From Escherichia coli (lineage in GTDB: Bacteria > Pseudomonadota > Gammaproteobacteria > Enterobacterales > Enterobacteriaceae): 64,000 nt of DNA. Shown here piece after piece: positions 4,859 through 61,462 of the stretch; position 1 is the first letter of the stretch, and each line of letters starts with the position of its first letter. The stretch lies in NCBI RefSeq assembly GCF_024298765.1, contig NZ_CP101210.1; one strand, 5' to 3'. Under the pieces are notes generated by a model. It had not been told where the DNA came from, made no database searches, and was given only the letters and a program-made list of their open reading frames with translations. A program made the translations under genes and the position numbers.

Positions 4859-6231
4859 CCTTGTGGGTCCTTACGCGTAATAGTGACCGGAAGCCAGAGG
4901 GTGAACGTTGCGCCTTTTCCCTCCTGGCTTACGACCTGAATTGTACCACCGTGTTGTTCAACAATATTATGCACGACCGCCAGCCCCAGTCCGGTGCCTT
5001 CGGCCTTCGTGGTGAAATACGGGGTGAAGATGGCTTCAAGCTGATCCGCCGCAATTCCCTTACCGCTGTCGGTAACGCTGATTTTTACGCCCGCGCCGCT
5101 TTCGCTGGCCGTCACGCTAATCACGCCATGCTGACCAATCGCCTGAATAGCGTTGAGATAGAGATTCAACAGGACCTGAGTCAGCCTGTCCGGATCGGCC
5201 TGAATTTCCGGTAATGTGTCGTTGGCGGTAAAGCGTAACTGGATCTCCCGGCTGTTTGCATCCTGGCTTACCAGCTGTAATGAGTGGCTAATCAGCGTGT
5301 TGAGTTCCACCGCCTGCAAAGCCAGATGCGTTGGCTTAACCAGTTCCAGCAACTCGCTTACCACGCGGTTTAAACGGTCAGCTTCTTTCGCCATCACCTG
5401 CGCCAGTTGATGCGCTTCTCCCCCTGCTGGCGCGCGTTCGGCAAAGTATTTCGCCAGCCCTTTAATCGAGGAAAGTGGGTTACGGATTTCGTGGGCAACG
5501 CCTGCCGCAAGATGCCCCAGTGCCACCAGCTTCTCTTTGCGCTTCATTTCATCCTGCAACAGCTGGCCCGAGCGCAGATATCGGCGATACCAGAAGAATG
5601 ACAACACGCTTGCCAGCAAGACCGTCGCCAGGGCGAAGAGGATAATCAGGGTGTTTCTCTGCTCACGATCTTCGGCACTCACAATGTTACTGGCGTCGAA
5701 AGCGATAAAAATTGCTTGTGGTGTCGCGGCATACTGCTGCATATGGCGCATCCGGTGCATTCCAGCAGCAAACATCGGTTGAAACTGGCGATAAATTTCC
5801 AGAACAGGCTCGCCGTCTGCGCTATCGATCCGCCGCCACGCTTCTTCATCTCCCGGATGTAACTGCTGCATTTCCTGCGGGGAATAAAGCTGTTTTCCCA
5901 CCATGCCGGAGTTGCTATGCATCACGATTGTTCCTTGTTCATCCGTGACCGCAAACCAACGTACACCAGGCTGCCCGGCCATTTCTTCCAGTAATGCCTG
6001 CTGCTGCGCATGATGCATGCGCATCCCCATGCCGACGCGCGAGCCGGATTCGAGAGCACGGATAAGTACACTGCCTTTTTCCAGCAGCGTTTGTCTGGCG
6101 GCTGCAGTCTCGCGCCCGTAATCGCGAATCACTGTCACCGCAAACAGCCCCACCAGCCCAACAATGACCACGGGGAGGATCGCGCTTAACCATTTAGCTA
6201 AGGAGTCTTTAGAACGTTGCATAAAACGCAT
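4855..6231 (-). CDS. zraS: Sensor histidine kinase of the zinc-responsive envelope stress two-component system
   Basis: 458-aa ORF; TM segments, H-box HEIRNPL, HATPase G-boxes; upstream of and overlapping zraR. Confidence 0.9.
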   Translation of the reverse strand: MRFMQRSKDSLAKWLSAILPVVIVGLVGLFAVTVIRDYGRETAAARQTLLEKGSVLIRALESGSRVGMGMRMHHAQQQALLEEMAGQPGVRWFAVTDEQGTIVMHSNSGMVGKQLYSPQEMQQLHPGDEEAWRRIDSADGEPVLEIYRQFQPMFAAGMHRMRHMQQYAATPQAIFIAFDASNIVSAEDREQRNTLIILFALATVLLASVLSFFWYRRYLRSGQLLQDEMKRKEKLVALGHLAAGVAHEIRNPLSSIKGLAKYFAERAPAGGEAHQLAQVMAKEADRLNRVVSELLELVKPTHLALQAVELNTLISHSLQLVSQDANSREIQLRFTANDTLPEIQADPDRLTQVLLNLYLNAIQAIGQHGVISVTASESGAGVKISVTDSGKGIAADQLEAIFTPYFTTKAEGTGLGLAVVHNIVEQHGGTIQVVSQEGKGATFTLWLPVTITRKDPQG

Positions 6232-9379: not shown

Positions 9380-9523
9380 GAGCCTGGTCCACCAGGCGTA
9401 ATTGTTGAAGGCAGTTTGAGGCCGGACAGCGCGGAAAAACCGGAGCGTACACGTAGTACGTGAGGATTTTGAGCACTGCCCGGCCTCAAAATGGCAAATA
9501 AAATAGCCTGATGGACCAGGCTC
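9380..9523. mobile_element. 144-bp MITE-like palindromic element with 18-bp terminal inverted repeats, flanked by TTA direct repeats
   Basis: Left TIR gagcctggtccaccaggc (9380..9397) vs right TIR reverse complement gagcctggtccatcaggc (9506..9523); inner IR ttgaggccgg/ccggcctcaa; central perfect palindrome cacgtagtacgtg; TTA at 9377..9379 and 9524..9526. Confidence 0.6.
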
Positions 9524-17569: not shown

Positions 17570-17761
17570 GACAGAATGTAAGAACGTAAATTTATTCCGA
17601 GCCGCTACGGAAGATGAAAAACGCAAGGTTGTTGAAAGCGTTGTGTTTTTTTATGGTAGTCCCGTCAGCAGGAATGTTGTCCAGGGCGAAAAGCTTCTTC
17701 CTCGTTTCGCCCTGCCTTTCTTAAAAATTCCGTGAAGAATTGCCCTCTGAATAACACCCAT

Positions 17762-38843: not shown

Positions 38844-38928
38844 GTATCAGTCTGCTTCGCAAGACGCCTTGCTTTTCACTTTCTATCAGACAATCTGTGT
38901 GAGCACTGCAAAGAACGCTTCTTTAAGG

Positions 38929-40470
<1,542 letters not shown>

Positions 40471-40800
40471 AAAAGTTTGATGCTCAAAGAATTAAACTTC
40501 GTAATGAATTACGTGTTCACTCTTGAGACTTGGTATTCATTTTTCGTCTTGCGACGTTAAGAATCCGTATCTTCGAGTGCCCACACAGATTGTCTGATAA
40601 ATTGTTAAAGAGCAGTGCCGCTTCGCTTTTTCTCAGCGGCGCGGGGTGTGCATGATACACTTTCCCGCTACAGAGTCAAGCATTTATTTTTGCTTTCTCT
40701 GCCGGAATTCTCAGGAGAACCCCGCTGACCCGGCGGCGTGTTTGCCGTTGTTCCGTGTCAGTGGTGGCGCATTATAGGGAGTTATTCCGGCCTGACAAGA
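40471..40800 (-). promoter_or_regulatory. rrn leader plus tandem P2 and P1 promoters
   Basis: Minus strand contains CTCCCTATAATGCGCCACCACTG (P1) and GCTTGACTCTGTAGCGGG...(P2 -35); leader conserved with 29..177. Confidence 0.7.
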
Positions 40801-40843
40801 GGAAATTTAAAATAATTTTCTGACCGCGCAACATTCAACCAAA

Positions 40844-41701
40844 TCAGTCTAAAACTGCCAGTTTTTCGAGCGTTTCGAAGCCGTAACGCTGTAAAACGGG
40901 CAATAATTGTTCAGCTTCTGGCGTCATTGCCATACAAAAGGCAATATTCGCATCGGCAGATTTTGCATCCGGGGCTTCATGTTCTAACAGCCAGGCCGTT
41001 CGGCGAGCAATCGCTGCGCCAGAATCCACCAGCCGGGTTCCCTCTGGCAGCACCTGTAACAGTTCTTCTTGTAGTAGAGGGAAATGGGTACACCCCAGTA
41101 CAACGGTATCTGGCGGCTCTTTCATTCTTAACCACGGACGCAAGATACGTTTTAGCGCATCCAGAGAAACATCTTCGCCATGCAGCTTCGCTTCAGCCAA
41201 CTCGACCATCTCTGCCGAGCCCAGCATTTCTATCTGGCATTCATTAGCGAAACGCGCGATCAGCTCATGAGTATAAGAACGTTTAACAGTTCCGCGGGTT
41301 GCCAGTAATCCGACAATGCCATTTGCCGTCAGACGTGCAGCAGGTTTAATCGCCGGCACGACACCAACAACCGGGAAGTCGAACTTTTCGCGTAATGCAG
41401 GAAGTGAAACGGTACTGGCGGTGTTGCAAGCGACCACAGCCAGCGCAAGGGGATAACGTTCTTGCACTGCGGTGACAATTGCCACCACTCGCTCAACAAT
41501 AAACTCTTCGCTTTTTTCGCCATACGGGAAAGCGACGTTATCGAAAGCATAAATGTAATGGAGATCCGGTAAGAGATGCCGGATCTCGTCATAGACCGAC
41601 AACCCACCGACGCCGGAGTCAAACACCAGCACGGTGGGACGTGGTTCAGAAGGTGTAGCTGCCAGACAAGGTGTATTCCCGTCCTGCAGTTTGGTAGCCA
41701 T
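40844..41701 (-). CDS. murI: Glutamate racemase
   Basis: 285 aa from [40 protein letters not shown]; 5' end overlaps btuB 3' end. Confidence 0.95.
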
Positions 41702-43490
41702 AGACTGTCTCATAATCTTTGTCGAACAGGTTGGCTATTTTACCACGAACTGTCAGATGAGAGGTGACCGGATACGCAACCGCAAGATCCCACAAGCTCA
41801 CACCGCCCATTTTGACTGACTTATAGGGCCAGGATGAGTAATCCGAATCGTATCGCGATCCCAGATATTGATAAGTTACACCCCAGTCAAAATCGAACAC
41901 TTGCCAGTCGAGCTGATACTTTACTTGCTGTTTAGGACGACGTTCTAACGGTTTGTCAGTTAAGGCATTTCTGGCATCCGTATAATCGTAGCTAACGGTA
42001 TGCACCAGCGGTCCAGTCTCGAAGTTTGCTGTAGATTCAATACCCTTAATATGCACCTTTGCGTCGTTATAATATCTTTCGCAGTTTTGGGTACAATTAA
42101 TCATATCACTGATATCATTACGGTATCCTGAAATTCGCCAGTTCACTCCTGCTGTTAAGCCTTCAAACGCCCCTTCCCACTGTTTGCTTTTTTCTGGATC
42201 GAGATTCGGATTACCTTTGTAACCATATAACTGACCGAGATTTGGCGCTTTAAATGCAGTTCCATAGGAAGCGATAAAGCGATAGCCTTCAATAAACTCC
42301 CATCCCACACTGGATTGCCATGTTGTGTGGCGATCAAATTGCGAGTTGTCGTCATTACGCACCGCGCCTTCTAACGTAAAATCGCCAACTTTTTGTAATC
42401 CAGTCAGATAAATCCCCGTGTTACGCTGATCGTAACCTTTTGGCAAATATCCAGTTCCAGGAGTAGTGGATTGTTTTTGCCAGTCGATACCAGCTCCAAC
42501 ATCACCGTGACCGACTGTGACGCTATTTGTCCACTGGAGATTGTATTGTTTCATCTCATCCAGGTTAGCTGATGCGTCATAGCGTCCATAATGTGGATCG
42601 TAGTTGTAATCTTTACTATGGCTATAACTGGAAACAAGTTGAGATTGCAGTGTTTCGCCAGCGTAGCGAAGACCCGCATCCCAGCTTTGACTATAAAGTT
42701 TTCGTGTATCAATCAGCGGAGAACCAGGAGAGTACCAGGCGTCATATTTAGTTCGGTTATCATAGCCGTAGCCACGAACAAATCCGCTCCACGTATCAGA
42801 GAAGTTATGTTCAAGTTTGCCGTAGAGTGTTTTACTTAAAAAACCGTCTCTGTCTGACTGTGGCTGCATCCCAGTGTTGCCATAGGCAACGACATCAAAT
42901 CCCCTGGTATAGGCATAATCACCAAGAAGTGTTACTTGAGTATTTTCACCAATTTGTTGCTGAGTGGAAATATCGTAATTTTGATAACTATTACTTCCCC
43001 ATCCGGCTGAAATTTCAGTGCCAGTATTCTCACGGGAGGTAATAATATTTATCACACCGCCAATGGCATCTGAGCCATAAATCGCTGAACGTGGCCCACG
43101 GATATATTCGATACGCTGCACCAAAGCGATCGGAAACTGGCTCAGGTCAGCCGATCCGCTAACACCTGCTAAATTCAGACGTACACCATCAATTAAAACC
43201 AGTGCATGGTTAGAGTTCGTGCCTCGAATAAAAATAGTTGAGAGCTGACCTTCTCCTCCATTTTGTGCAATTGCCACACCAGGCAAACGGCGGAGAACAT
43301 CATTTACAGAGGAAACTTGCCATCGTTCAATATCCTCACGTGTCACGACAGTGACAGGAGCAAGCACGGCACTTAATGGTTCCTGAAAACGGTTAGCAGT
43401 AACAACGAGAGTATCCGGGCTGGTATCCTGTGCCCAAGCAGAAAAAGCTGTGACAGAACACGCCGTCAGCAGCGAAGCTTTTTTAATCAT
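41646..43490 (-). CDS. btuB: TonB-dependent vitamin B12 outer membrane transporter
   Basis: 614 aa from [35 protein letters not shown]; TonB box DTLVVTA; C-terminal F. Confidence 0.97.
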
Positions 43491-43731
43491 TGTAAAGCAT
43501 CCACAATAGAAGAAGGATGCCGCAGGTTTCATCAATATTACGCGATGATGAGAACCAGATGCGACGTTAGCCGGCAGGTCTTCGGGCTTGGAGGGGTATC
43601 TAAGATACTAAGAGATGATGACTTCCCACCGGATGGCAGTGTCCGCATAACGCAATCATCGCACCTTTCCTTACCGCTGCGCGTCAGCTCCAGATTCGCA
43701 CTGGATTCCCTATTAACTCACAGGACCGGCA
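43491..43731 (-). promoter_or_regulatory. Cobalamin (AdoCbl) riboswitch / btuB leader
   Basis: Minus strand matches the btuB leader GCCGGTCCTGTGAGTTAATAGGGAATCCAGTGCGAATCTGGAGCTGACGCGCAGCGGTAAGGAAAGGTGCGATGATTGCG...CTGCCGGC... Confidence 0.85.
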
Positions 43732-43858
43732 AGTGGATGCTACAGGTTGTAACAAGTTACTGTCCAGACGTAGCTCACAAATAGGAATTCATCAAGATCT
43801 GGACATCTGATGAGCAATCCCTACAATCGCCGCGTACTTTAATTTTTCAGGATACATC

Positions 43859-44959
43859 ATGACCCCCGAACACCTTCCAACAGAACAGTATGAAGCGCAG
43901 TTAGCCGAAAAAGTGGTACGTTTGCAAAGTATGATGGCACCGTTTTCTGACCTGGTTCCGGAAGTGTTTCGCTCGCCGGTCAGTCATTATCGGATGCGTG
44001 CGGAGTTCCGCATCTGGCACGATGGCGATGACCTGTACCACATCATTTTCGATCAACAAACCAAAAGTCGTATCCGTGTGGATAGCTTCCCCGCCGCCAG
44101 TGAACTTATCAACCAGTTGATGACGGCGATGATTGCGGGTGTGCGTAATAATCCCATTCTGCGCCACAAGTTGTTCCAGATTGATTACCTCACTACGCTA
44201 AGCAATCAAGCGGTTGTTTCCTTGCTGTACCATAAAAAGCTGGATGATGAGTGGCGTCAGCAGGCGGAAGCCCTGCGCGATGCACTGCGCGCGCAGAATC
44301 TGAATGTGCATCTGATTGGTCGGGCAACGAAAACCAAAATCGAGCTGGACCAGGATTACATCGATGAACGTCTGCCGGTCGCAGGGAAAGAGATGATCTA
44401 CCGTCAGGTAGAAAACAGCTTTACCCAGCCGAACGCGGCGATGAATATTCAGATGCTGGAATGGGCGCTGGACGTAACCAAAGGCTCAAAAGGCGATTTG
44501 CTGGAGCTGTACTGCGGCAACGGTAACTTTTCATTAGCACTGGCGCGCAATTTTGATCGGGTATTAGCCACCGAAATCGCTAAGCCGTCGGTCGCTGCCG
44601 CGCAATACAACATTGCCGCTAACCATATTGATAACGTACAAATTATTCGTATGGCGGCAGAAGAATTTACTCAGGCGATGAATGGCGTACGCGAGTTTAA
44701 CCGCCTGCAAGGAATCGACTTAAAGAGTTATCAGTGCGAAACCATTTTTGTCGACCCACCGCGCAGCGGTCTGGACAGTGAAACCGAGAAAATGGTGCAG
44801 GCGTATCCACGTATTCTGTATATCTCCTGCAATCCGGAAACGTTATGCAAGAATCTGGAAACATTAAGCCAGACGCACAAGGTCGAACGTCTGGCTCTGT
44901 TTGATCAGTTCCCCTACACGCACCATATGGAGTGCGGCGTATTACTGACCGCGAAGTAA
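43859..44959 (+). CDS. trmA: tRNA (uracil54-C5)-methyltransferase
   Basis: 366 aa [29 protein letters not shown]; SAM-MTase motifs. Confidence 0.95.
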
Positions 44960-44964
44960 AACCC

Positions 44965-44990
44965 ATGCCGGATGCACCAGCATCCGGCAT
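44965..44990. terminator. REP-like hairpin between convergent trmA and yijD
   Basis: atgccggatgcaccagcatccggcat perfect inverted repeat. Confidence 0.5.
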
Positions 44991-44998
44991 GATACCGA

Positions 44999-45358
44999 TT
45001 ACTCAGCAACTTCCTGCTTACGGTTACGCATCTTCGCGCCAATCCAGAACACCATAATGACGGAGAGTACTGCCGGGAAGAAGTTAGAGCCGATATCCGG
45101 ATATTCCGCACGAACTACCGTGCTGTACAGCAGTACGCCGAGAATAAAACAGGCAGCTGCCAGACCCGGCAAGCCTACCGGCATGGTGCGATTAAGATAA
45201 CGTTGATGCAGGCAGTAAACCGTCAGCAACAGGGAAATAATCGGGAATACAGAAAATGGCACAATGGAGCTAAACAGCGCTGCGAAAGTACCATTAATCG
45301 ATAAGCCAGCAACCAACGCCAGCAGCAGCGTACCTCTATCTTGATTTGCTTGTTTCAT
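44999..45358 (-). CDS. yijD: DUF1422 inner membrane protein
   Basis: 119-aa hydrophobic ORF immediately downstream of fabR. Confidence 0.88.
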
Positions 45359-46005
45359 TACTCGTCCTTCACATTTCCCGGAATAATTGCGGTTTTCTCT
45401 TGTTCACGGCGATACCAGTAATAAGCCCCTTTAGAAATCATTCGCAGTTGCAGTACCAGTCGCTCTTCTAATTGCCGACGTTGTTCGACGCCGACATCCA
45501 ACGCCTCGGCCCCCGCACTGAAGACAATCGTCACCATTGCTTCGGCTTGCGCTTCAGTAAACGCACGCGGCATATGGTTTTCGAGTTCCAGATAGTCCGC
45601 AAGTTCCGCAATGAAGTGCTGAATTTCACGCGCAACGGCGGCACGAAACGCAGCGGAGGTGCCGGAGCGTTCCCGCAATAATAACCGGAAGGCGTTAGGA
45701 TTATTACCGATGAACTCCATAAATGTGGAGACCGAGGTGCGGATCACACTCCCGCCTTTGGCGATACGCTGACGCGCCTGACGCATGAGTTGGCGTAGCA
45801 TTAAACCGCTCTCATCAACCATGGTCAGACCCAGTTCGTCTACGTCGCGGAAATGCCGATAAAAAGAGGTGGGAGCAATGCCCGCTTCACGCGCCACTTC
45901 ACGCAAACTCAGGCTGGCGAAGCTGCGTTCAGCACTTAATTGGCTAAATGCGGCTTCCACCAGCGAACGGCGGGTTTTTTCTTTTTGTTGCGCTCTTACG
46001 CCCAT
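45358..46005 (-). CDS. fabR: TetR-family repressor of unsaturated fatty acid biosynthesis
   Basis: 215 aa from [52 protein letters not shown] (TetR HTH); track ORF runs 32 codons further upstream. Confidence 0.9.
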
Positions 46006-46339
46006 CACGATGTCTGAATCCTTGCCAAAAGTACTGCTGGCACTATACCAGAGAATGAACATACTGGATTGCTCCAGTATTGTGAATGAACGGTAACGCA
46101 ATAAAACATATTTACTGCAATTCTTTGGCCGGTTCTTTTACGTACAACGGAAACCTGCCGCTTAAACGGAGAGTATCGTCGATAAAAATCCAATAAAACG
46201 TTCAGGTCAAAAGTAAGAAACAGACAAAGCAAAGGCCGCTCACGATATAGCCAGATAAATGACGGGGATCAATTGGCTTACCCGCGATAAAATGTTATCA
46301 TTCTGTTGCTTTTATGTATAAGAACAGGTAAGCCCTACC

Positions 46340-47740
46340 ATGCCACATTCCTACGATTACGATGCCATAGTAATAGGTTCCGGCCCCGGCGGCGAAGGCG
46401 CTGCAATGGGCCTGGTTAAGCAAGGTGCGCGCGTCGCAGTTATCGAGCGTTATCAAAATGTTGGCGGCGGTTGCACCCACTGGGGCACCATCCCGTCGAA
46501 AGCTCTCCGTCACGCCGTCAGCCGCATTATAGAATTTAATCAAAACCCACTTTACAGCGACCATTCGCGACTGCTCCGCTCTTCTTTTGCCGATATCCTT
46601 AACCATGCCGATAACGTGATTAATCAACAAACGCGCATGCGTCAGGGATTTTACGAACGTAATCACTGTGAAATATTGCAGGGGAACGCTCGCTTTGTTG
46701 ACGAGCACACGCTGGCGCTGGATTGCCCGGACGGCAGCGTCGAGACACTAACCGCTGAAAAATTTGTTATTGCTTGCGGCTCTCGTCCATATCATCCAAC
46801 AGATGTTGATTTCACGCATCCACGCATTTACGACAGCGACTCAATTCTTAGCATGCACCACGAACCGCGCCATGTACTTATCTATGGTGCTGGAGTGATC
46901 GGCTGTGAATATGCGTCGATCTTCCGCGGTATGGATGTAAAAGTGGATCTGATCAACACCCGCGATCGCCTGCTGGCATTTCTCGATCAAGAGATGTCAG
47001 ATTCTCTCTCCTATCACTTCTGGAACAGTGGCGTAGTGATTCGTCACAACGAAGAGTACGAGAAGATCGAAGGCTGTGACGACGGTGTGATCATGCATTT
47101 GAAGTCGGGTAAAAAACTGAAAGCTGACTGCCTGCTCTATGCCAACGGTCGCACCGGTAATACCGATTCGCTGGCGTTACAGAACATTGGGCTGGAAACT
47201 GACAGCCGCGGACAGCTGAAGGTCAACAGCATGTATCAGACCGCACAGCCGCACGTTTACGCGGTGGGCGACGTGATTGGTTATCCGAGCCTGGCGTCGG
47301 CGGCCTATGACCAGGGGCGCATTGCCGCGCAGGCGCTGGTGAAAGGTGAAGCCACCGCACATCTGATTGAAGATATCCCTACCGGTATTTACACCATCCC
47401 GGAAATCAGCTCTGTGGGCAAAACCGAACAGCAGCTGACCGCGATGAAAGTGCCATATGAAGTGGGCCGCGCCCAGTTTAAACATCTGGCACGTGCACAA
47501 ATCGTCGGCATGAACGTGGGCACGCTGAAAATTTTGTTCCATCGGGAAACAAAAGAGATTCTGGGTATTCACTGCTTTGGCGAGCGCGCTGCCGAAATTA
47601 TTCATATCGGTCAGGCGATTATGGAACAGAAAGGTGGCGGCAACACTATTGAGTACTTCGTCAACACCACCTTTAACTACCCGACGATGGCGGAAGCCTA
47701 TCGGGTAGCTGCGCTAAATGGCTTAAACCGCCTGTTTTAA
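46340..47740 (+). CDS. sthA: Soluble pyridine nucleotide transhydrogenase
   Basis: 466 aa [38 protein letters not shown]; FAD/NAD Rossmann motifs. Confidence 0.97.
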
Positions 47741-48640
47741 CACTTTATCGAAATGGCCATCCATTCTTGCGCGGATGGCCTCTGCCAGCTGCTCATAGCG
47801 GCTGCGCAGCGGTGAGCCAGGACGATAAACCAGACCAATGGTACGGCGTGGTTCCGGCTTAATACACGGCAAATAAACAACCCCATCGCGTTTGCGCTCC
47901 GGCGGCACAGCCAGCGCAGGCAGTAAAGTGATCCCGCTACCTGCCGCCACCATGTTGCGCAGAGTTTCCAGGCTGGTCGCGCGGAAGTGTGTATCTTCAT
48001 CCGCCCCGGCTTCAAAACAGAAACCCATTGCCTGATCGCGCAAACAGTGACCGTCTTCCAGCATCAGCAGTTTTTCCCCTGCCAGATCGGCCATCGGTAC
48101 GCATTCGCGGTTCGCCCACGGATGGTCTTCATAGATAGCCAGCAACATTGGCTCATCAAACAACGGCACTTCAATGAATGCTTCGCTCTCTTTCACCAGC
48201 GCGAGGATCACGCAATCGAGTTTGCCGCTGTCCAGTTGCGCCAGTAACTGGTGGGTCTGTGCTTCATGCAGATACATTTCCAGCTTTGGAAAGGTCTGGT
48301 GCAGCATCGGGATAATATGCGGTAGCAGGTACGGTCCAACCGTGGGAATCAGACCAATATGCAGCGGTCCGGACATCGTCTCGCCCTGCTGGCTTGCCAT
48401 CTCTTTAAGGACTTTCACCTCACGCAGCACGGTACGCGCCTGATCCACCAGCAGCATTCCCGCCTGGGTGAATAACACTTTACGGCTGGTCCGCTCCAGC
48501 AACATCACACCCAACTCATCTTCCAGCTTACGAATTTGCCCGCTAAGCGTCGGCTGGCTAACGTGGCAGGAATCTGCCGCACGCCGAAAATGGCGGTGTT
48601 CGGCCAATGCCACCAGGTACTCAAGATCACGAATATTCAT
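47723..48640 (-). CDS. oxyR: LysR-family hydrogen peroxide-inducible regulator
   Basis: 305 aa from [44 protein letters not shown]; redox Cys residues present; 3' end overlaps sthA by 18 bp. Confidence 0.97.
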
Positions 48641-48735
48641 TATCCATCCTCCATTGCCACGATAGTTCGCGGCGATAGGTAGCATAGCAACGAACGATTA
48701 TCCCTATCAAGCATTCTGACTGATAATTGCTCACA

Positions 48736-48848
48736 GAAACGGAGCGGCACCTCTTTTAACCCTTGAAGTCACTGCCCGTTTCGAGAGTTTCTCAACTCGA
48801 ATAACTAAAGCCAACGTGAACTTTTGCGGATCTCCAGGATCCGCTTTT
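48736..48848 (+). ncRNA. oxyS: OxyS small regulatory RNA
   Basis: GAAACGGAGCGGCACCTCTTTTAACCCTTGAAGTCACTGCCCGTTTCGAGAGTTTCTCAACTCGAATAACTAAAGCCAACGTGAACTTTTGCGGATCTCCAGGATCCGCTTTTTTTT; divergent from oxyR. Confidence 0.92.
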
Positions 48849-48891
48849 TTTTATTCTACAGGCCCACAGCAAGAGAGCCTGATAGTAACGG

Positions 48892-50175
48892 TTACTCAAT
48901 CCGATCTTTGACAATAAAGAAGTAACACAGCGCCCCGGTGAACGTCACACAGGCCGCGATAACCAGCGCCAGATTAAACGAGTGTGTGGTATCCACGACC
49001 CAACCGGTTACGATCGGAGCAAAGGAAGCAAAAACAAAACTGCCAAAGTTTTGAATCCCGGCGATGGAAGCCACTTTTGTTTCTGACACCATCACCTGCA
49101 CCAGCCCCCATGCAGATGTTCCCGCGAAATGCACGCAGAACAGCGCCATTGAGATAAACGCTACCGCCTGGGCTGGCGAGGAAGATTGCACGACCAGCAA
49201 CGTGCCTAATGCCGACATCATCAAACCGCAGACAATCGCCGTTTTACGCGTCTTCGCCAGGTCATAGCCTTTTTTCGCCAGCCGATCGACAACAATACCG
49301 TTAACCCACATCCCGACCGCCGCCGCGAGGAAAGGAATTGCCGCCACCCAACCGGTTTTCGCCAGACTGAAACCTTGTTCGGCCTGCAAATAACCGGGTA
49401 ACCACGCGATGTAGAGCCAACCGGTATAATTGACGCCAGAGAAACCTAAAATCATCCCCCAGGTTGTCCGATGCTTAAACAGCGCCAGCCACTCGCTAAA
49501 TTGTAACTGTGGACGCGGTTTAACCGGCGCGGAGAGATATGTCCGTTCTTCCTCGGTCAGGACAAACTGCGCCCGGTTGCGATACCACGCGTACCAACAG
49601 ATCCCAACCAGAATCCCTGCTACGCCGATGATGACAAACATCGTCCGCCAGCCCCATGCCAGTTGCATCAATACAAGAGCAGGAGGCGCGATAGCCTGAC
49701 CGATAACGGTAGATGAGTTAAAAATCCCCAGCGCCGTGCCGCGTTCTTTTTGCGCATACCAGTCGGTGATCGACTTTACTCCCGCAGGCATAAATGGCGC
49801 TTCGCCAATACCCAGACCGATACGCATTAAAATAAAGTGGCTAAAAGAATTAACCATTCCTGTTAATGCCTGCATTAATGACCAGAATATTAAGCCTGCG
49901 CCTAACACTATTCGTGGGCCAAAGCGGTCTAGCAAAATACCGGAAGGAAGTTGTGAAAAACCATAAGACAGAGAAAATGCAGAAAGCAAAACACCAAACT
50001 CGGTAGCGGATAATCCTAACTCGCCACGAATTGCTTCACCTGCCACGCTCAATGACGAACGGTCGAGAAAATTAACGATCCCCGCCATAAATAATAAAAC
50101 CAGGGTCACTGTCTGAATACGACGAATCCGTTGCGGTTTATTACCCGCAACACTGGTTGACACATCAACGTCCAT
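48892..50175 (-). CDS. MFS transporter, anion:cation symporter family (hexonate/hexuronate-type)
   Basis: 427-aa ORF; MFS motif A GILLDRFGPRIV; about 12 hydrophobic segments; strong RBS aaggag; resembles the DgoT/ExuT/GudP/RhmT class by eye. Confidence 0.85.
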   Translation of the reverse strand: MDVDVSTSVAGNKPQRIRRIQTVTLVLLFMAGIVNFLDRSSLSVAGEAIRGELGLSATEFGVLLSAFSLSYGFSQLPSGILLDRFGPRIVLGAGLIFWSLMQALTGMVNSFSHFILMRIGLGIGEAPFMPAGVKSITDWYAQKERGTALGIFNSSTVIGQAIAPPALVLMQLAWGWRTMFVIIGVAGILVGICWYAWYRNRAQFVLTEEERTYLSAPVKPRPQLQFSEWLALFKHRTTWGMILGFSGVNYTGWLYIAWLPGYLQAEQGFSLAKTGWVAAIPFLAAAVGMWVNGIVVDRLAKKGYDLAKTRKTAIVCGLMMSALGTLLVVQSSSPAQAVAFISMALFCVHFAGTSAWGLVQVMVSETKVASIAGIQNFGSFVFASFAPIVTGWVVDTTHSFNLALVIAACVTFTGALCYFFIVKDRIE

Positions 50176-50241
50176 TTTTAGCTCCTTGAGCGGAATTAAT
50201 CGATTTGATGAATATTCAGAAAATAATTAAGCGAACCGCTA

Positions 50242-51456
50242 TTACCAGTTCCACAATGTGCCATCTTCCAGTCGTGCGACGGGGAGATACGCCGGGTCAT
50301 ACGGATATTTCGCCGCCAGTTTCTCATCGAAAGAAATACCCAGCCCCGGTTCATCGCCTGGGTGCATATAACCTTCATCGAAGCGCCAGCTATGCGGGAA
50401 GACTTCAAGCATTTGTTCGGAATAGCCCATGTACTCCTGAACGCCAAAGTTTGGCACCCAGAGGTCAAAATGCAGCGCCGCCGCATGGCAAACAGGCGAT
50501 AAATCTGAAGGGCCATGCGAACCGGTACGTACCTGATAAAGCGATGCAAAATCGGCAATCCGTCGCATCCCGGTAATGCCGCCTGCATGGGTAATCGTCG
50601 TGCGAATATAGTCAATCAGCTGCTCTTCGATTAACTGCTTGCAGTCCCAGATACTGTTAAACACTTCACCGACCGCAATCGGCGTCACGGTATGCTGACG
50701 AATCAGACGAAAACATTCCTGATTCTCGGCAGGCGTCGGATCTTCCATCCAGAACAGGCGGTAATCTTCAATGCTCTTCCCAAAGCGCGCCGCTTCGATG
50801 GGGGTCAGGCGATGGTGCATGTCATGCAACAGATGTTCGTTAAAACCGAACTTATTACGCACCGCTTCAAATAACTTCGGCGTAAAATCGAGATACTTTT
50901 CTGAAGACCACAACTGCTCTTCTGGCCACAGGCCTTTGGTTGCTGGTTCATACGCCAGTCCTTTGCCCTTCGCCAGACCATAGGTGGTTTGCATACCCGG
51001 TACACCACACTGCACACGAATCGCCTTAAAGCCCATCTGCTGGTGCTTTGCATAGTCTTCAAGGACTTCATCAATCGTACGCCCGGTGGTGTGGCAATAA
51101 ACCATAACGCCTTCACGAGAAGCACCACCAAGCAGTTGATACAATGGCATATTTGCCGCTTTTGCTTTGATATCCCACAACGCCATATCAATGGCAGAAA
51201 TGGCTGACATCGTGACGGGGCCACGTCGCCAGTAAGCACCTTTATAAAAGAATTGCCAGATATCTTCGATACGGCTGGCATCGCGGCCAATTAGTTGTGG
51301 ACAAAGATGATCTTTCAGATAAGAAGCGACCGACAATTCGCGACCATTTAACGTGGCATCTCCTAATCCACAAAGTCCGCTTGCAGTGGTTATTTTAAGC
51401 GTAACGAAATTACGCCCTGGGCAAGTAACAAAAACATCTGCAGCAATAATTTTCAT
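50242..51456 (-). CDS. Enolase-superfamily dehydratase, D-mannonate dehydratase (ManD/RspA-like) subgroup
   Basis: 404 aa from [24 protein letters not shown]; ManD-type motifs ([25 protein letters not shown]) and metal ligands in HDMHH / WMEDP / GEVF; RBS aggag. Confidence 0.85.
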
Positions 51457-51857
51457 TATTGCAATCTCCTGTGTTGTAAATAGACGTTTCAAACTTAATT
51501 TTGCGCCTACTACCATACAAGAGAGAAAGAGCGATTATTCAACCATGATCACATTAAAAATAAAAATTTCTACCGAGGAGAAAAAACACCCTCAAAAACC
51601 ACCTGAATAATTAGCTATCATCGTTAAAACAACACGTTAAATAATCACATAACAAACTCCATTAATCATTAAAAATGAACACAGCAATAGAAATGAATTA
51701 TATTCAATTAATTAAAGTATGTATTGGCTGATGTATTGAAAATATAATTTTTATGGGGAGAGTGAAGGTAAAGAAGACGCAAGAATAAAAAGGAATGTGA
51801 CAAATAATGGTTCTGGTTGGGCGTTAAATTTAAGGTCACCAGAATACTGACAAATTT

Positions 51858-51912
51858 CTGCCTGATGCGGCGTAAACGCCTTATCCGCCTACGAAGTGTC
51901 GCACTTTGTAGG
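51858..51912. repeat. REP/BIME-type palindromic repeat downstream of argH
   Basis: gcctgatgcggcgtaaacgccttatccgcctac followed by an imperfect palindrome gaagtgtcgcactttgtagg. Confidence 0.6.
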
Positions 51913-51953
51913 CGTGGTAAGCTCCCCATTTTCAGGGGAGCAATATAAACAAA

Positions 51954-53327
51954 CTACTCTAACCGAGCTTGCGCAAAAGCAATCGCCTGCGCCACCTGCT
52001 GCGGTGAGACGCCGCCTTTTGCAGCACGCTTGTCGAGGCACGATTGCAGCGACAGAATCGGATAGACATCTTCGCCAATCACCTGGCTGAATTTCTGCAA
52101 CTCACTGAGCGGCAGATCTTCCAACGCTTTGCCCTGACGAATGGCTTCCACCACAGCTTCACCCACAATATGGTGCGCCTCGCGGAACGGTACGCCTTTC
52201 GCCACCAGATAATCCGCCAGTTCAGTAGCGTTGGCGTAACCCTGCTGCGCCGCTTCCTGGCAACGCGGACGTTTCACCTGAATGCCGTCCAGCACCAGCG
52301 CCGCCATATGCAGGCAGTCCAGCCAGGTATCGAGCGCGTCGAACAGACCTTCTTTGTCTTCCTGCATATCTTTGTTGTAAGCCAGCGGCAAACCTTTCAG
52401 CGTCATCATCATGCCGGTTAACGCCCCCTGCACCCGACCGCATTTACCGCGAATCAGCTCCAGCGCATCCGGGTTTTTCTTCTGCGGCATTAATGATGAA
52501 CCGGAAGTCACACGGTCAGAAAGCTCCACAAACCCCGCTTCGCCGGTGTTAAAGAAAATCAGATCTTCAGCAAAACGCGACAGATGCACCATGCCGATAG
52601 CGGCAGCAGAAAGCAGTTCCAACACATGGTCACGGTCAGAAACGCTGTCGAGACTGTTACGGGTCGCCGAAGCAAAGCCCAGCCAGCCTGCTAACTGTTC
52701 ACGGTCGATTTCATAGGCCGTTCCTGCCAGTGCGCCACAGCCTAGCGGGCTGACATCCAGACGCTTAAGCGCGTCCTGCAAACGGCTTTCATCACGCGCC
52801 AGCATCTCAACGTAGGCCAGGCACCAGTGAGCGAACGTCACCGGCTGGGCGCGTTGCAGGTGAGTGTAACCCGGCATCACCGCGTCCTGATTGTTCTGCG
52901 CGGTCTCGACCAGAGCGGATTGTAACTGCCGGTTAGCCGTCAGCAACTCGCTAACGGTATCTTTGCACCACAGTTTCAGGTCAGTTGCTACCTGATCATT
53001 ACGGCTACGCCCGGTATGCAGTTTTTTGCCTAACTGACCCACTTTGTCGATCAGTTTGCCTTCCACCCAGCTATGGATATCTTCGGCGTCGCTTTCAAGG
53101 ATTTGTTGTGGCCTGGCGCGAACATCTTCCAGCAGCACGTTCAGCGCCTCTTCCAGTTGCGCCTGCTCTTCTGCGGTTAACACGCCGACCGTTACCAGGG
53201 CTTTGGACCAGGCCACAGAGCCAACAATATCCTGCTCCGCCAGACGGTAATCAAAGCGCAGTGAGTCGTTGAATTGTTTGAACCGTTGATCTGCTGCCTG
53301 GGTAAAACGCCCGCCCCAAAGTGCCAT
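51954..53327 (-). CDS. argH: Argininosuccinate lyase
   Basis: 457 aa [44 protein letters not shown]. Confidence 0.97.
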
Positions 53328-56481: not shown

Positions 56482-56497
56482 AACGTAGGCCAAACAA

Positions 56498-61364: not shown

Positions 61365-61462
<98 letters not shown>

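Follow-up and report, generated by a model that had tools for sequence, protein, structure and literature searches.

Does the gene pair that separates argH from oxyS in this Escherichia coli genome represent DNA gained at this site or DNA lost from K-12? The original prediction, made from the window (the whole stretch of 64,000 nucleotides that was analysed), had placed a co-oriented ManD-like dehydratase and MFS transporter pair here. The list of open reading frames and the annotation agreed with it: both genes lie on the minus strand, in a two-gene module that runs from 48853 to 51953, bounded by the terminator of OxyS on one side and the stop codon of argH on the other (Table 1). OxyS and the MFS gene are convergent, with 46 bp between the 3' end of OxyS and the manD-MFS operon. 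Both genes were already annotated in RefSeq, and the module is thus real but ordinary. The longer manD reading frame that starts at 51516 is a mechanical one only.

Table 1. Features of the argH-oxyS region, in window positions
Feature	Position	Strand	Size, basis or remark
OxyS small RNA gene, left flank	48736-48845	plus	Rfam RF00035, 139.5 bits, E 2.8e-30
Allele-specific 39-bp spacer, OxyS terminator to MFS stop codon	48853-48891		
MFS transporter gene	48892-50175	minus	427 aa
manD	50242-51456	minus	404 aa from RefSeq start
Promoter-proximal leader, homologous to the rspA promoter	51457-51560	minus	alignment
Putative RBS of manD, AGGAG	51470-51466	minus	
Putative -10 of the manD promoter, TAAGTT	51497-51492	minus	
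Putative -35 of the manD promoter, TTGTAT	51520-51515	minus	
Degenerate RspR box, TCTCTTGTAT	51524-51515	minus	
Conserved TGTGATC block	51553-51547	minus	
AT-rich non-coding spacer	51561-51859		~28-33% GC
REP-like palindromic element downstream of argH	51860-51914		read from sequence
Hairpin CTCCCC-N7-GGGGAG	51922-51940	minus	14 nt past argH stop; without U-run
argH, right flank	51954-53327	minus	ORF and annotation; stop codon region is the right breakpoint

To define the breakpoints, the window was compared with a K-12-like genome. Homology ended at 48852, the last T of the run that closes the OxyS terminator, and restarted at 51955, in the argH stop codon. At the position of the module, the K-12-like strain carries 54 bp of unrelated spacer, so argH and oxyR/oxyS are indeed neighbors in K-12-type genomes, as the original prediction had it. 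Over the whole 64 kb, 48853 to 51954 was the sole gene-sized interval lacking a match in the K-12-like genome; the claim that no other gene content falls outside the K-12 map was therefore correct. The AT-rich region noticed upstream of the pair corresponds to a 497-bp leader upstream of manD, in which the GC content falls to 28 to 38%, and the coding GC of the module (42 to 56%) is like that of the flanks. Neither an integrase nor a transposase or IS reading frame was found among the open reading frames and annotation of the window, in accordance with the original prediction, and no tRNA gene was found at the module. Direct or inverted repeats flanking the module were not significant, with short repeats occurring at chance level only. 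The module thus shows none of the marks of a mobile genomic island, namely, an integrase or IS element, a tRNA target, direct repeats, and atypical composition.

We next examined how the module is distributed. It was present in 1,860 of 5,426 complete E. coli genomes (about 34%), and the K-12 junction was present in 3,553. A match over at least 80% of the two-gene interval was obtained in 1,859 genomes, with the RefSeq annotation of both genes in place among the matches listed. The locus is therefore strain variable, and the pair, carried by only about a third of the genomes, is not part of the gene set shared by most E. coli strains. At least three allele classes exist at the argH-oxyS site in E. 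coli; 147 genomes carry an additional 9-kb sugar island with a degenerate OxyS copy, and unrelated insertions occur at this site in other enterobacteria. The site is a true hotspot, as anticipated in the original prediction. A simple rule based on phylogroups (module present in B2/D/F and absent from A/B1/E) was rejected because the module is missing from H118, a strain whose name refers to ST131, and because it also occurs in strains that match the K-12-like strain exactly in their flanking proteins. A K-12-type argH and a module-bearing argH from the same genetic background showed nine differences, eight of them within 200 bp of the junction. The presence or absence of the module probably segregates by recombination.

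The OxyS sequence itself was 100% identical in the K-12-like strain, Nissle, E. whittamii, and other loci. A MAFFT alignment had hinted at a degenerate second OxyS copy at the module in the window. This candidate was rejected since local alignments against OxyS and the ST38-type pseudo-OxyS remained at the level of shuffled sequences (score of 17 versus 16.4 ± 2.3 for shuffles; z of 0.7 to 1.5), and Rfam gave only the real OxyS in the window. The pseudo-OxyS is real in the ST38-type allele only. A search of the accessible literature found no paper mentioning this argH-linked manD-MFS copy. For CFT073, it confirmed that oxyR is c4922 and found nothing on locus tags c4920 and c4921.

The direction of the change was then deduced from other enterobacteria. 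There, argH lies 46 to 212 bp from the OxyS terminator in 51 of the 54 informative loci, and the A-run and GCCCGG hairpin motif of the K-12 spacer are found in 52 of 61 loci. Because argH abuts oxyS and the K-12 spacer hairpin is present in most of these bacteria, enterobacteria ancestrally had the K-12 arrangement, and the module was inserted. Of the two origins that the original prediction had left side by side, insertion here held, and deletion in K-12 did not. A module that belonged to the ancestral core genome and was deleted in K-12 and its relatives would explain why several Escherichia species and one Citrobacter strain have it at this site, and partial deletions that arose independently exist in the present-day strains JS01 and MINF_9A. 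Nevertheless, such a deletion is very unlikely given the arrangement in the other enterobacteria. In addition, the 54-bp K-12 spacer is without homology inside the module allele, and the flanks at the junction display tightly clustered old differences rather than identity. Homology of this spacer to the module allele, or to the spacer between the MFS gene and oxyS in Citrobacter sp. R56, was rejected: blastn-short recovered the shared T-run only, and a permissive alignment scored no better than shuffled sequences. Some of the empty alleles seen today could nonetheless have arisen secondarily, by recombinational replacement.

The module also occupies this site in E. whittamii, Escherichia sp. 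E1V33, Escherichia sp. MOD1-EC7003, and Citrobacter sp. R56, the last with an internally deleted manD. In the comparison with E. whittamii, the pS was 0.29 for manD and 0.25 for both argH and oxyR, and the dS of the MFS gene was 0.28; in every Escherichia comparison, the synonymous divergence of the module equaled that of argH and oxyR. The insertion is thus ancient, older than the species E. coli, and not a recent gain of this strain. A genomic islet recently acquired by horizontal transfer into the strain or clone would fit the patchy distribution (34% of E. coli genomes), the AT-rich leader, and a site that takes other foreign DNA, such as the 9-kb island and the inserts in other genera. 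It is, however, extremely unlikely in view of the synonymous divergence, the occupation of this position by the module in three further species-level lineages of Escherichia, the coding GC shared with the flanks, and the absence of an integrase, IS element, tRNA gene, or flanking repeats. In a species-level scan, no match came from the genomes representing E. coli, E. albertii, E. fergusonii, E. marmotae, and E. ruysiae, so an ancient origin needs many losses or replacements.

As for the source of the inserted pair, a manD gene (91 to 94% identical) and an MFS gene (82 to 89% identical) are adjacent in Enterobacter, Pluralibacter, Klebsiella, and Raoultella and also in Lelliottia, Siccibacter, Atlantibacter, and another Citrobacter strain. 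In these genera, the pair is bordered on one side by ynfC-speG-ynfB and on the other by rspB, a ydfJ-like gene, a ydfI-like gene encoding a fructuronate reductase, and ydfH(rspR)-ydfG; a glucuronate isomerase gene is sometimes present too. Loci with the order manD-MFS-rspB (Lelliottia, Siccibacter, and Enterobacter sp. kpr-6) share both the pair and its gene order with the module, whereas those with the order MFS-manD-rspB (Pluralibacter, Klebsiella, and Raoultella) share the pair in the other order. The rsp operons of these genera run on with rspB, the ydfJ-like transporter gene, and the fructuronate reductase gene, and the module corresponds to the first two genes and the promoter. No rspB was found near the module, where the order runs manD, MFS gene, oxyS. 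The rsp locus of E. coli itself, at ynfA-rspB and repressed by RspR (YdfH), consists of rspA-rspB without an MFS gene. Its RspA is 92% identical to the ManD of the module, and the two loci share a homologous core promoter and the TGTGATC block; however, its second gene is rspB, encoding a Zn-dependent dehydrogenase, in place of the MFS gene. Synonymous sites between manD and rspA are saturated (pS of 0.70), indicating that the duplication is old. The module is a paralogue of part of the enterobacterial rsp operon.

The manD product passed the NCBIfam equivalog NF043051 (D-mannonate dehydratase ManD) with 731.5 bits over residues 1 to 404, against a curated cutoff of 550 bits, and could be aligned end to end with PDB entry 4IL2 ("Starvation sensing protein rspA"). 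The motifs AIRVQ (145), TTYG (157), LHDMHH (210), WMEDP (236), and VGEVF (262) are present and are identical in the 4IL2 alignment. Based on what is known of ManD structures, we take their residues to be the metal-binding Asp/Glu/Glu, the catalytic Arg-Tyr, and the catalytic His. The protein is predicted to be an enolase-superfamily D-mannonate dehydratase paralogous to RspA. Within the enterobacterial RspA clade it is also the most divergent protein, with 91 to 94% identity to all the others.

The best NCBIfam match of the MFS protein was TIGR00893 (D-galactonate transporter subfamily), with 276.6 bits; this is under the curated cutoff of 395 bits, suggesting that the protein is a relative of DgoT rather than a DgoT orthologue. 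The protein was also under the cutoff of every other substrate-defined NCBIfam family. It nonetheless aligned, at distant similarity, with the DgoT structure (PDB 6E9N) over residues 13 to 424 of 427 (E value of 1.9e-57), with its FLDRS (residue 36) and GIGEAP (residue 122) segments facing YVDRA and GIFEAP of DgoT. The Asp-Arg pair in TM1 and the Glu in TM4 of DgoT reportedly act in proton coupling and carboxylate binding, according to the DgoT structure paper, and both have a counterpart here, in the LDR and GEAP motifs. The MFS protein is therefore predicted to be a DgoT-like aldonate:H+ importer of the anion:cation symporter type. Its gene is unlinked to dgo genes. The MFS proteins encoded beside manD/rspA in other genera are 82 to 89% identical to it.

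The region upstream of manD was also compared with that of rspA. The 100 bp upstream of manD could be aligned with PrspA, and the block CTTGTATGGTAGT, which contains the -35 element TTGTAT, was invariant in all eight aligned sequences, which included the upstream regions of E. coli rspA and of manD from three other genera. The TGTGATC block was conserved in the same alignment. The manD promoter is thus homologous to PrspA. Both the sequence of the RspR box (ATACnnGTAT) and the start of rspA transcription have been described (PMC8249747). E. coli rspA has a perfect copy of the box, as do three other genera, but a search allowing up to one mismatch found none ahead of manD, whether in the window or in the remaining argH-linked copies. 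RspR control via a conserved box was rejected accordingly. In the argH-linked copy, the left half of the operator has changed from ATAC to TCTC, so tight repression by RspR has probably been lost here. Some rsp loci of other genera adjoin the rspR gene, and the RspR box is still perfect in the three manD-first loci, unlike in the module.

Are the two genes still useful? The pN/pS ratio was 0.015 to 0.03 for manD and 0.01 to 0.03 for the MFS gene, as low as for argH and oxyR at pS values up to about 0.3. Both genes are under strong purifying selection. Inactivated modules were also found, with a 276-bp deletion in the MFS gene, a 1.83-kb deletion, an IS1 insertion, or an ISKpn26 insertion; since several lineages carry one, the module is dispensable. 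These disruptions, the manD remnant of Citrobacter sp. R56, and the lack of the rest of the pathway and of a regulator in the module would be expected if the pair were a functionless relic drifting to loss, and the Gerlt laboratory is said to have suggested that low-efficiency ManDs are possibly relics. We consider this unlikely because of the low pN/pS ratios, the 1,859 genomes with a match over most of the interval, the intact catalytic and proton-coupling motifs, and a promoter core that is invariant across genera.

The spacers on either side of the module were examined for terminators and RNA elements. The CTCCCC hairpin, conserved in E. whittamii and Escherichia sp. E1V33, occupies the site of the canonical argH terminator of the K-12 allele and was not scored as terminator-like. 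No terminator-like site was found on the minus strand of the spacer between the MFS gene and OxyS, where an intrinsic terminator for the manD-MFS transcript was sought; this spacer is 97.8 to 100% conserved in other Escherichia module alleles. The argH-manD intergenic region is 83 to 88% identical to that of other Escherichia species, compared with 93 to 96% for the genes. A search for Rfam families in this region gave only one weak REP-type match, to the REP-derived naRNA4 at 51810 to 51890 (27.6 bits; E value of 0.045). A related copy of the REP-like element lies at 61418 to 61452 of the window. One reading of this layout is that the presence or absence of the operon is an ancient polymorphism maintained across Escherichia species, with a regulatory side effect on OxyS and OxyR: in strains with the module, the canonical argH terminator would be gone, and an unterminated manD-MFS transcript would run antisense through oxyS towards the oxyR promoter. 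We hold this to be a long shot. If true, transcription of the sugar-acid genes (or of argCBH) would be tied to the level of OxyS and OxyR in one third of E. coli, and the oxidative-stress response would be strain dependent.

The reading that we favor, with a probability of roughly 75%, is that the module is an old chromosomal accessory operon derived from the rsp operon, not a mobile element, with the following origin and mechanism. The front end of rsp, comprising an rspA-type promoter, the ManD gene, and the DgoT-like MFS gene, would have been copied to the argH-oxyS site in an Escherichia ancestor, displacing a short spacer that held the argH terminator. The copy would then have descended vertically with its flanks, under strong purifying selection where it was kept, and would repeatedly have been lost, eroded, or swapped for the ancestral empty allele via homologous recombination. 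A sigma-70 promoter homologous to PrspA would drive a bicistronic manD-MFS transcript. The MFS protein may import a six-carbon sugar acid together with a proton, our best guess being L-gulonate or D-mannonate, and ManD would convert D-mannonate into 2-keto-3-deoxy-D-gluconate (KDG), which KdgK and Eda would channel into central metabolism. If L-gulonate is imported, the upstream steps to D-fructuronate and D-mannonate would be provided by RspB and YdfI/UxuB, encoded elsewhere. Uptake of an aldonate and dehydration of D-mannonate to KDG are thus the likely role of the pair. Genes for a dehydrogenase, kinase, aldolase, or regulator are absent from the module itself.

The route from L-gulonate through D-fructuronate and D-mannonate to KDG is that of the GulD-UxuB-UxuA pathway of Haemophilus influenzae, and this UxuA-based catabolism of D-glucuronate and L-gulonate resembles the module in the predicted D-mannonate-to-KDG step and in having an importer gene beside the enzyme gene (PMC5788505). 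The two systems differ in that ManD belongs to the enolase superfamily and is analogous, not homologous, to UxuA and in that H. influenzae uses a TRAP importer whereas the module encodes an MFS importer and neither the dehydrogenase nor the reductase step.

The architecture could also be right and the chemistry another one: the substrate might be a different sugar acid (D-gluconate, D-altronate, or an unrecognized aldonate), or the older "starvation-sensing" model of RspA might apply. The divergence of this ManD within its clade and a transporter below the cutoffs of the substrate-defined families are both consistent with this. Specificity reportedly differs within the ManD subgroup, according to the 2014 work of Wichelecki et al., in which RspA-type ManDs are also said to have had poor catalytic efficiency and a physiological role that could not be assigned; if so, the substrate of the module may differ from D-mannonate. 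We regard another chemistry as possible but the lesser prospect, since the ManD equivalog was passed by a wide margin and since the orthologous pair elsewhere sits with an RspB-type dehydrogenase, a fructuronate reductase, and sometimes a glucuronate isomerase, a context that points to the fructuronate/mannonate branch.

Only about two thirds of E. coli genomes follow the textbook argH-oxyS-oxyR map. The direction of the change is settled: the module is an ancient insertion, and nothing was lost from K-12. For OxyS studies in strains other than K-12, this means that the downstream context can differ, with a convergent operon that has no recognizable terminator. The module is a trimmed rsp copy and includes a transporter gene that is missing from E. 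coli's own rsp locus. The strong purifying selection on both genes argues that a ManD of the low-efficiency type and its importer are useful in the strains that keep them. The locus therefore bears on the purpose of RspA-type ManDs, for which Nissle 1917 and CFT073 would be convenient strains.

When all 64 kb were compared with a K-12-like genome (one carrying the K-12 argH-oxyS junction), 48853-51954 was the sole gene-sized interval that lacked a counterpart, as expected from the original prediction that nothing else in the window lies outside the K-12 map. Homology ended on the left at the final T of the OxyS terminator and on the right at the argH stop codon. The K-12-like strain had 54 bp in place of the module, forming a canonical argH terminator hairpin; the adjacency of argH and oxyS expected for K-12 holds with this spacer between them. 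No similarity was found between the spacer and any part of the module allele. The module, manD and an MFS transporter gene behind an AT-rich leader, had been described and placed accurately, as judged by the same comparison. The RefSeq annotation of Nissle 1917 labels the pair "D-mannonate dehydratase ManD" and "MFS transporter" and uses the ManD start that gives 404 aa. The GC composition of both genes is that of the neighboring genes. About 270 bp upstream of manD, the leader contains two copies of the octamer ATGTATTG, 12 bp apart. The pair is partially conserved in other Escherichia alleles and could be a binding site or a chance occurrence in AT-rich DNA.

Features of the argH-oxyS region in the window and of the third allele (L031/L032, loci extracted from NZ_AP022049.1, 4753000-4785000)
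Feature	Position	Strand	Remark
Divergent block	38864-48852		16S rRNA end, murI, btuB, trmA, yijD, fabR, sthA, oxyR
oxyR	47723-48640	minus	beyond OxyS
OxyS	48736-48845	plus	convergent with MFS gene
MFS transporter gene	48892-50175	minus
Terminator-like hairpin	50233-50251	minus	at manD stop codon
manD	50242-51456	minus
ATGTATTG pair	51717-51740		in AT-rich leader
Non-coding stretch			497 bp between argH and manD; GC down to 28-38%
argH	51954-53327	minus	order argC, argB, argH on minus strand, then non-coding stretch
Pseudo-OxyS	L032 4773-4895	plus	full-length, degenerate, broken stems; accompanies 9.1-kb island
Sugar island	L032 4906-13972

Smaller differences from the K-12-like strain were also seen. 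Since about 945 bp including yjaZ (annotated as "heat-shock protein C") are missing from the thiH-rpoC intergenic region (17733-17757), K-12 has gene content absent from the window strain. About 297 bp are likewise missing between argE and ppc (56491-56493), and stretches without a K-12-like match lie between zraS and zraP (about 290 bp, 5653-5939) and near the nfi-hemE junction (142 bp, 9381-9522). Across the 10-kb divergent block, identity to the K-12-like strain fell to 94.5%, versus 97 to 99% in the rest of the window, and the block must hold some unusually divergent gene.

A survey of 5,426 complete E. coli genomes showed the module to be accessory: the module segment (coverage of at least 80%) was present in 1,860 and the K-12 junction in 3,553, with about a dozen genomes having another arrangement. 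By identity to the window, the module sequences formed two clusters, one of at least 99% (n = 532), which takes in Nissle 1917 and clone D i14, and one of 95 to 99% (n = 1,335). A strain named for ST131, O157:H7, O26, and K-12 relatives were without it. A simple phylogroup rule was ruled out by the ST131-named strain and by three carriers (UK_Dog_Liverpool, Ec-042-T20-ESBL, and STEC17-190) that share identical TrmA, YijD, FabR, SthA, OxyR, ArgB, and ArgC proteins with the K-12-like strain.

Whether the module was inserted here or deleted in K-12 had been left undecided. Public metagenome contigs were scanned for a non-E. coli enterobacterial OxyS variant with the stem GCGGACC (GCGGATC in E. 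coli), giving 61 loci. Their ArgH was mostly 92 to 97% identical to that of E. coli, so the contigs stand for related genera. The argH stop lay 46 to 212 bp from the OxyS terminator in 51 of the 54 loci with enough sequence, the motif that composes the K-12 spacer (GCNTAAAAAAGCCCGG-loop-CCAGGCTC) directly followed the OxyS T-run in 52 of the 61, and neither manD nor the MFS gene was found at argH-oxyS in any of the 61. The ancestral state in enterobacteria is therefore the K-12 junction, with the module as the derived one.

In a species-level scan (one genome per species), the module occupied the exact same site in Escherichia whittamii, Escherichia sp. E1V33, and Escherichia sp. MOD1-EC7003, with a protein identity of 99%. 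Citrobacter sp. R56 had, at that site, a 92% identical MFS gene and an internally deleted manD remnant (L019, its extracted locus, 5693-5880). Module nucleotide identity followed flank identity in every comparison. Against the window, E. whittamii gave a pS of 0.29 for manD and 0.25 for both argH and oxyR, with a dS of 0.28 for the MFS gene; the corresponding values for UK_Dog_Liverpool were 0.08, 0.11, 0.10, and 0.10. Because the site is shared and module divergence tracks that of the flanks, the insertion must be older than the point at which these Escherichia lineages diverged and was inherited together with its flanks. The alternative of a recent deletion was set aside because the differences between K-12-type and module-linked argH in one genetic background cluster at the junction (8 of 9 sites within 200 bp), as expected when short recombination tracts exchange two haplotypes of long standing. 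An ancient insertion thus answers the question.

The nearest relatives of manD and the MFS gene adjoin each other, in either order, inside the rsp locus of Enterobacter, Pluralibacter, Klebsiella, Raoultella, Lelliottia, Siccibacter, Atlantibacter, and another Citrobacter. There, one flank consists of ynfC, speG, and ynfB, and the opposite flank encodes an RspB-type Zn-dependent oxidoreductase, a YdfJ-like metabolite/H+ symporter, and fructuronate reductase; some loci also have glucuronate isomerase. In several, a GntR regulator adjoining ydfG and dcp is the counterpart of ydfH/rspR. In contrast to these loci (L006-L021), where a DgoT-like MFS gene lies beside rspA, E. coli's own rsp locus (ynfC-speG-ynfB-ynfA-rspA-rspB; L024) has none. 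Since the argH-linked copy is the only one in E. coli, two thirds of E. coli strains are without this transporter. The 100 bp upstream of the window manD can be aligned to the rspA promoters of E. coli and three other genera; the CTTGTATGGTAGT block is invariant in this alignment, and a TGTGATC block is conserved as well. With the mapped rspA start site and the RspR box (ATACnnGTAT) taken from PMC8249747, the CTTGTATGGTAGT block contains the -35 element (TTGTAT) and the right half of the RspR operator. For the left half, rspA and the manD-first loci of other genera have ATAC, all argH-linked copies in Escherichia have TCTC, and Citrobacter R56 has AATC. Gene pairing, promoter alignment, and operator comparison together show that the module, whose operator is damaged, comprises the promoter and the two leading genes of an operon of the manD-MFS-rspB type. 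The window ManD shares 92% identity with E. coli RspA and 91 to 94% with all other enterobacterial RspA-type proteins, making it the most divergent member of that clade; synonymous sites between manD and rspA are saturated (pS 0.70).

ManD scored above the NCBIfam ManD equivalog cutoff (731.5 versus 550) and retains every catalytic motif of the solved RspA structure 4IL2. The best family for the transporter was the D-galactonate transporter subfamily, but below its cutoff (276.6 versus 395). Residues 13 to 424 of its 427 align with DgoT (6E9N), and it retains the Asp-Arg and Glu residues that serve proton coupling and carboxylate binding in DgoT. According to Wichelecki et al. (Biochemistry 2014, 53:5692), RspA-type ManDs are reportedly of low efficiency, CFT073 is said to have a cryptic L-gulonate pathway, and no physiological role was reportedly assignable to ManD. 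Because oxyR is c4922 in CFT073, the module genes there should be c4920-c4921. A literature search for the argH-linked manD-MFS copy found no paper. Considering the orthologue neighbors in other genera and the established route from L-gulonate via D-fructuronate and D-mannonate to 2-keto-3-deoxy-D-gluconate (KDG) (PMC5788505), the most likely role is proton-coupled hexonate import and D-mannonate dehydration. The MFS protein would take up L-gulonate or D-mannonate with a proton and ManD would convert D-mannonate to KDG, with RspB, YdfI/UxuB, KdgK, and Eda provided from elsewhere.

That the module is a dead relic is argued against by a pN/pS of 0.01 to 0.03 for both genes, a purifying selection as strong as that on argH and oxyR. 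The module is nonetheless dispensable and has been inactivated several times independently. Besides the Citrobacter remnant, we found an IS1 insertion in the module (match H1), an ISKpn26 insertion within the MFS gene (H61), a 276-bp in-frame MFS deletion in MINF_9A (L025; alignment pieces overlapping by 13 nt), and in JS01 (L026; 11-nt overlap) a 1.83-kb deletion (window 49836-51666) that takes out the promoter together with manD and the 5' portion of the MFS gene.

The canonical argH terminator of the K-12 spacer has no equivalent in the module allele, where only a hairpin without a U-run and a REP-like element follow argH, and no terminator-like site was found on the minus strand from the MFS stop to oxyS. 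Transcription could thus run on from argCBH into manD, and from the MFS gene across oxyS in the antisense direction. The terminator-like hairpin immediately ahead of the MFS gene may act as a partial terminator and so set the manD:MFS expression ratio. The total of terminator-like sites in the region was within about 1.5 standard deviations of shuffle expectation.

The proposal of a strain-variable hotspot gained support from a third allele class, found in 147 of the 5,426 genomes, one being a strain named ST38, and from unrelated cargo in other enterobacteria. In this allele, a 9.1-kb sugar-utilization island (43% GC) lies between argH and the manD leader and encodes an AraD-like 4-epimerase, a DeoR regulator, a four-gene sugar ABC transporter, L-ribulose-5-phosphate 3-epimerase, and an FGGY kinase. 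The accompanying pseudo-OxyS scored 35.5 bits in Rfam (gathering score, 75), with 81.6% identity over 98 bp. Since two metagenome loci of other enterobacteria (L068 and L075, from about 8100 onward) carry a 74 to 75% identical island abutting oxyS, the ST38-type island and pseudo-OxyS look like an import from a species with the island beside oxyS. A third metagenome locus had a 727-aa open reading frame in the gap (L043, 7970-10520). Such other cargo in enterobacterial contigs marks the argH-oxyS gap as a hotspot of insertion in several genera. Overall, the observation was confirmed and its earlier interpretation supported. Nearly two thousand public genomes already carry annotations of these genes and their families, so the module is no discovery but known biology, with a well-ordered evolutionary history.
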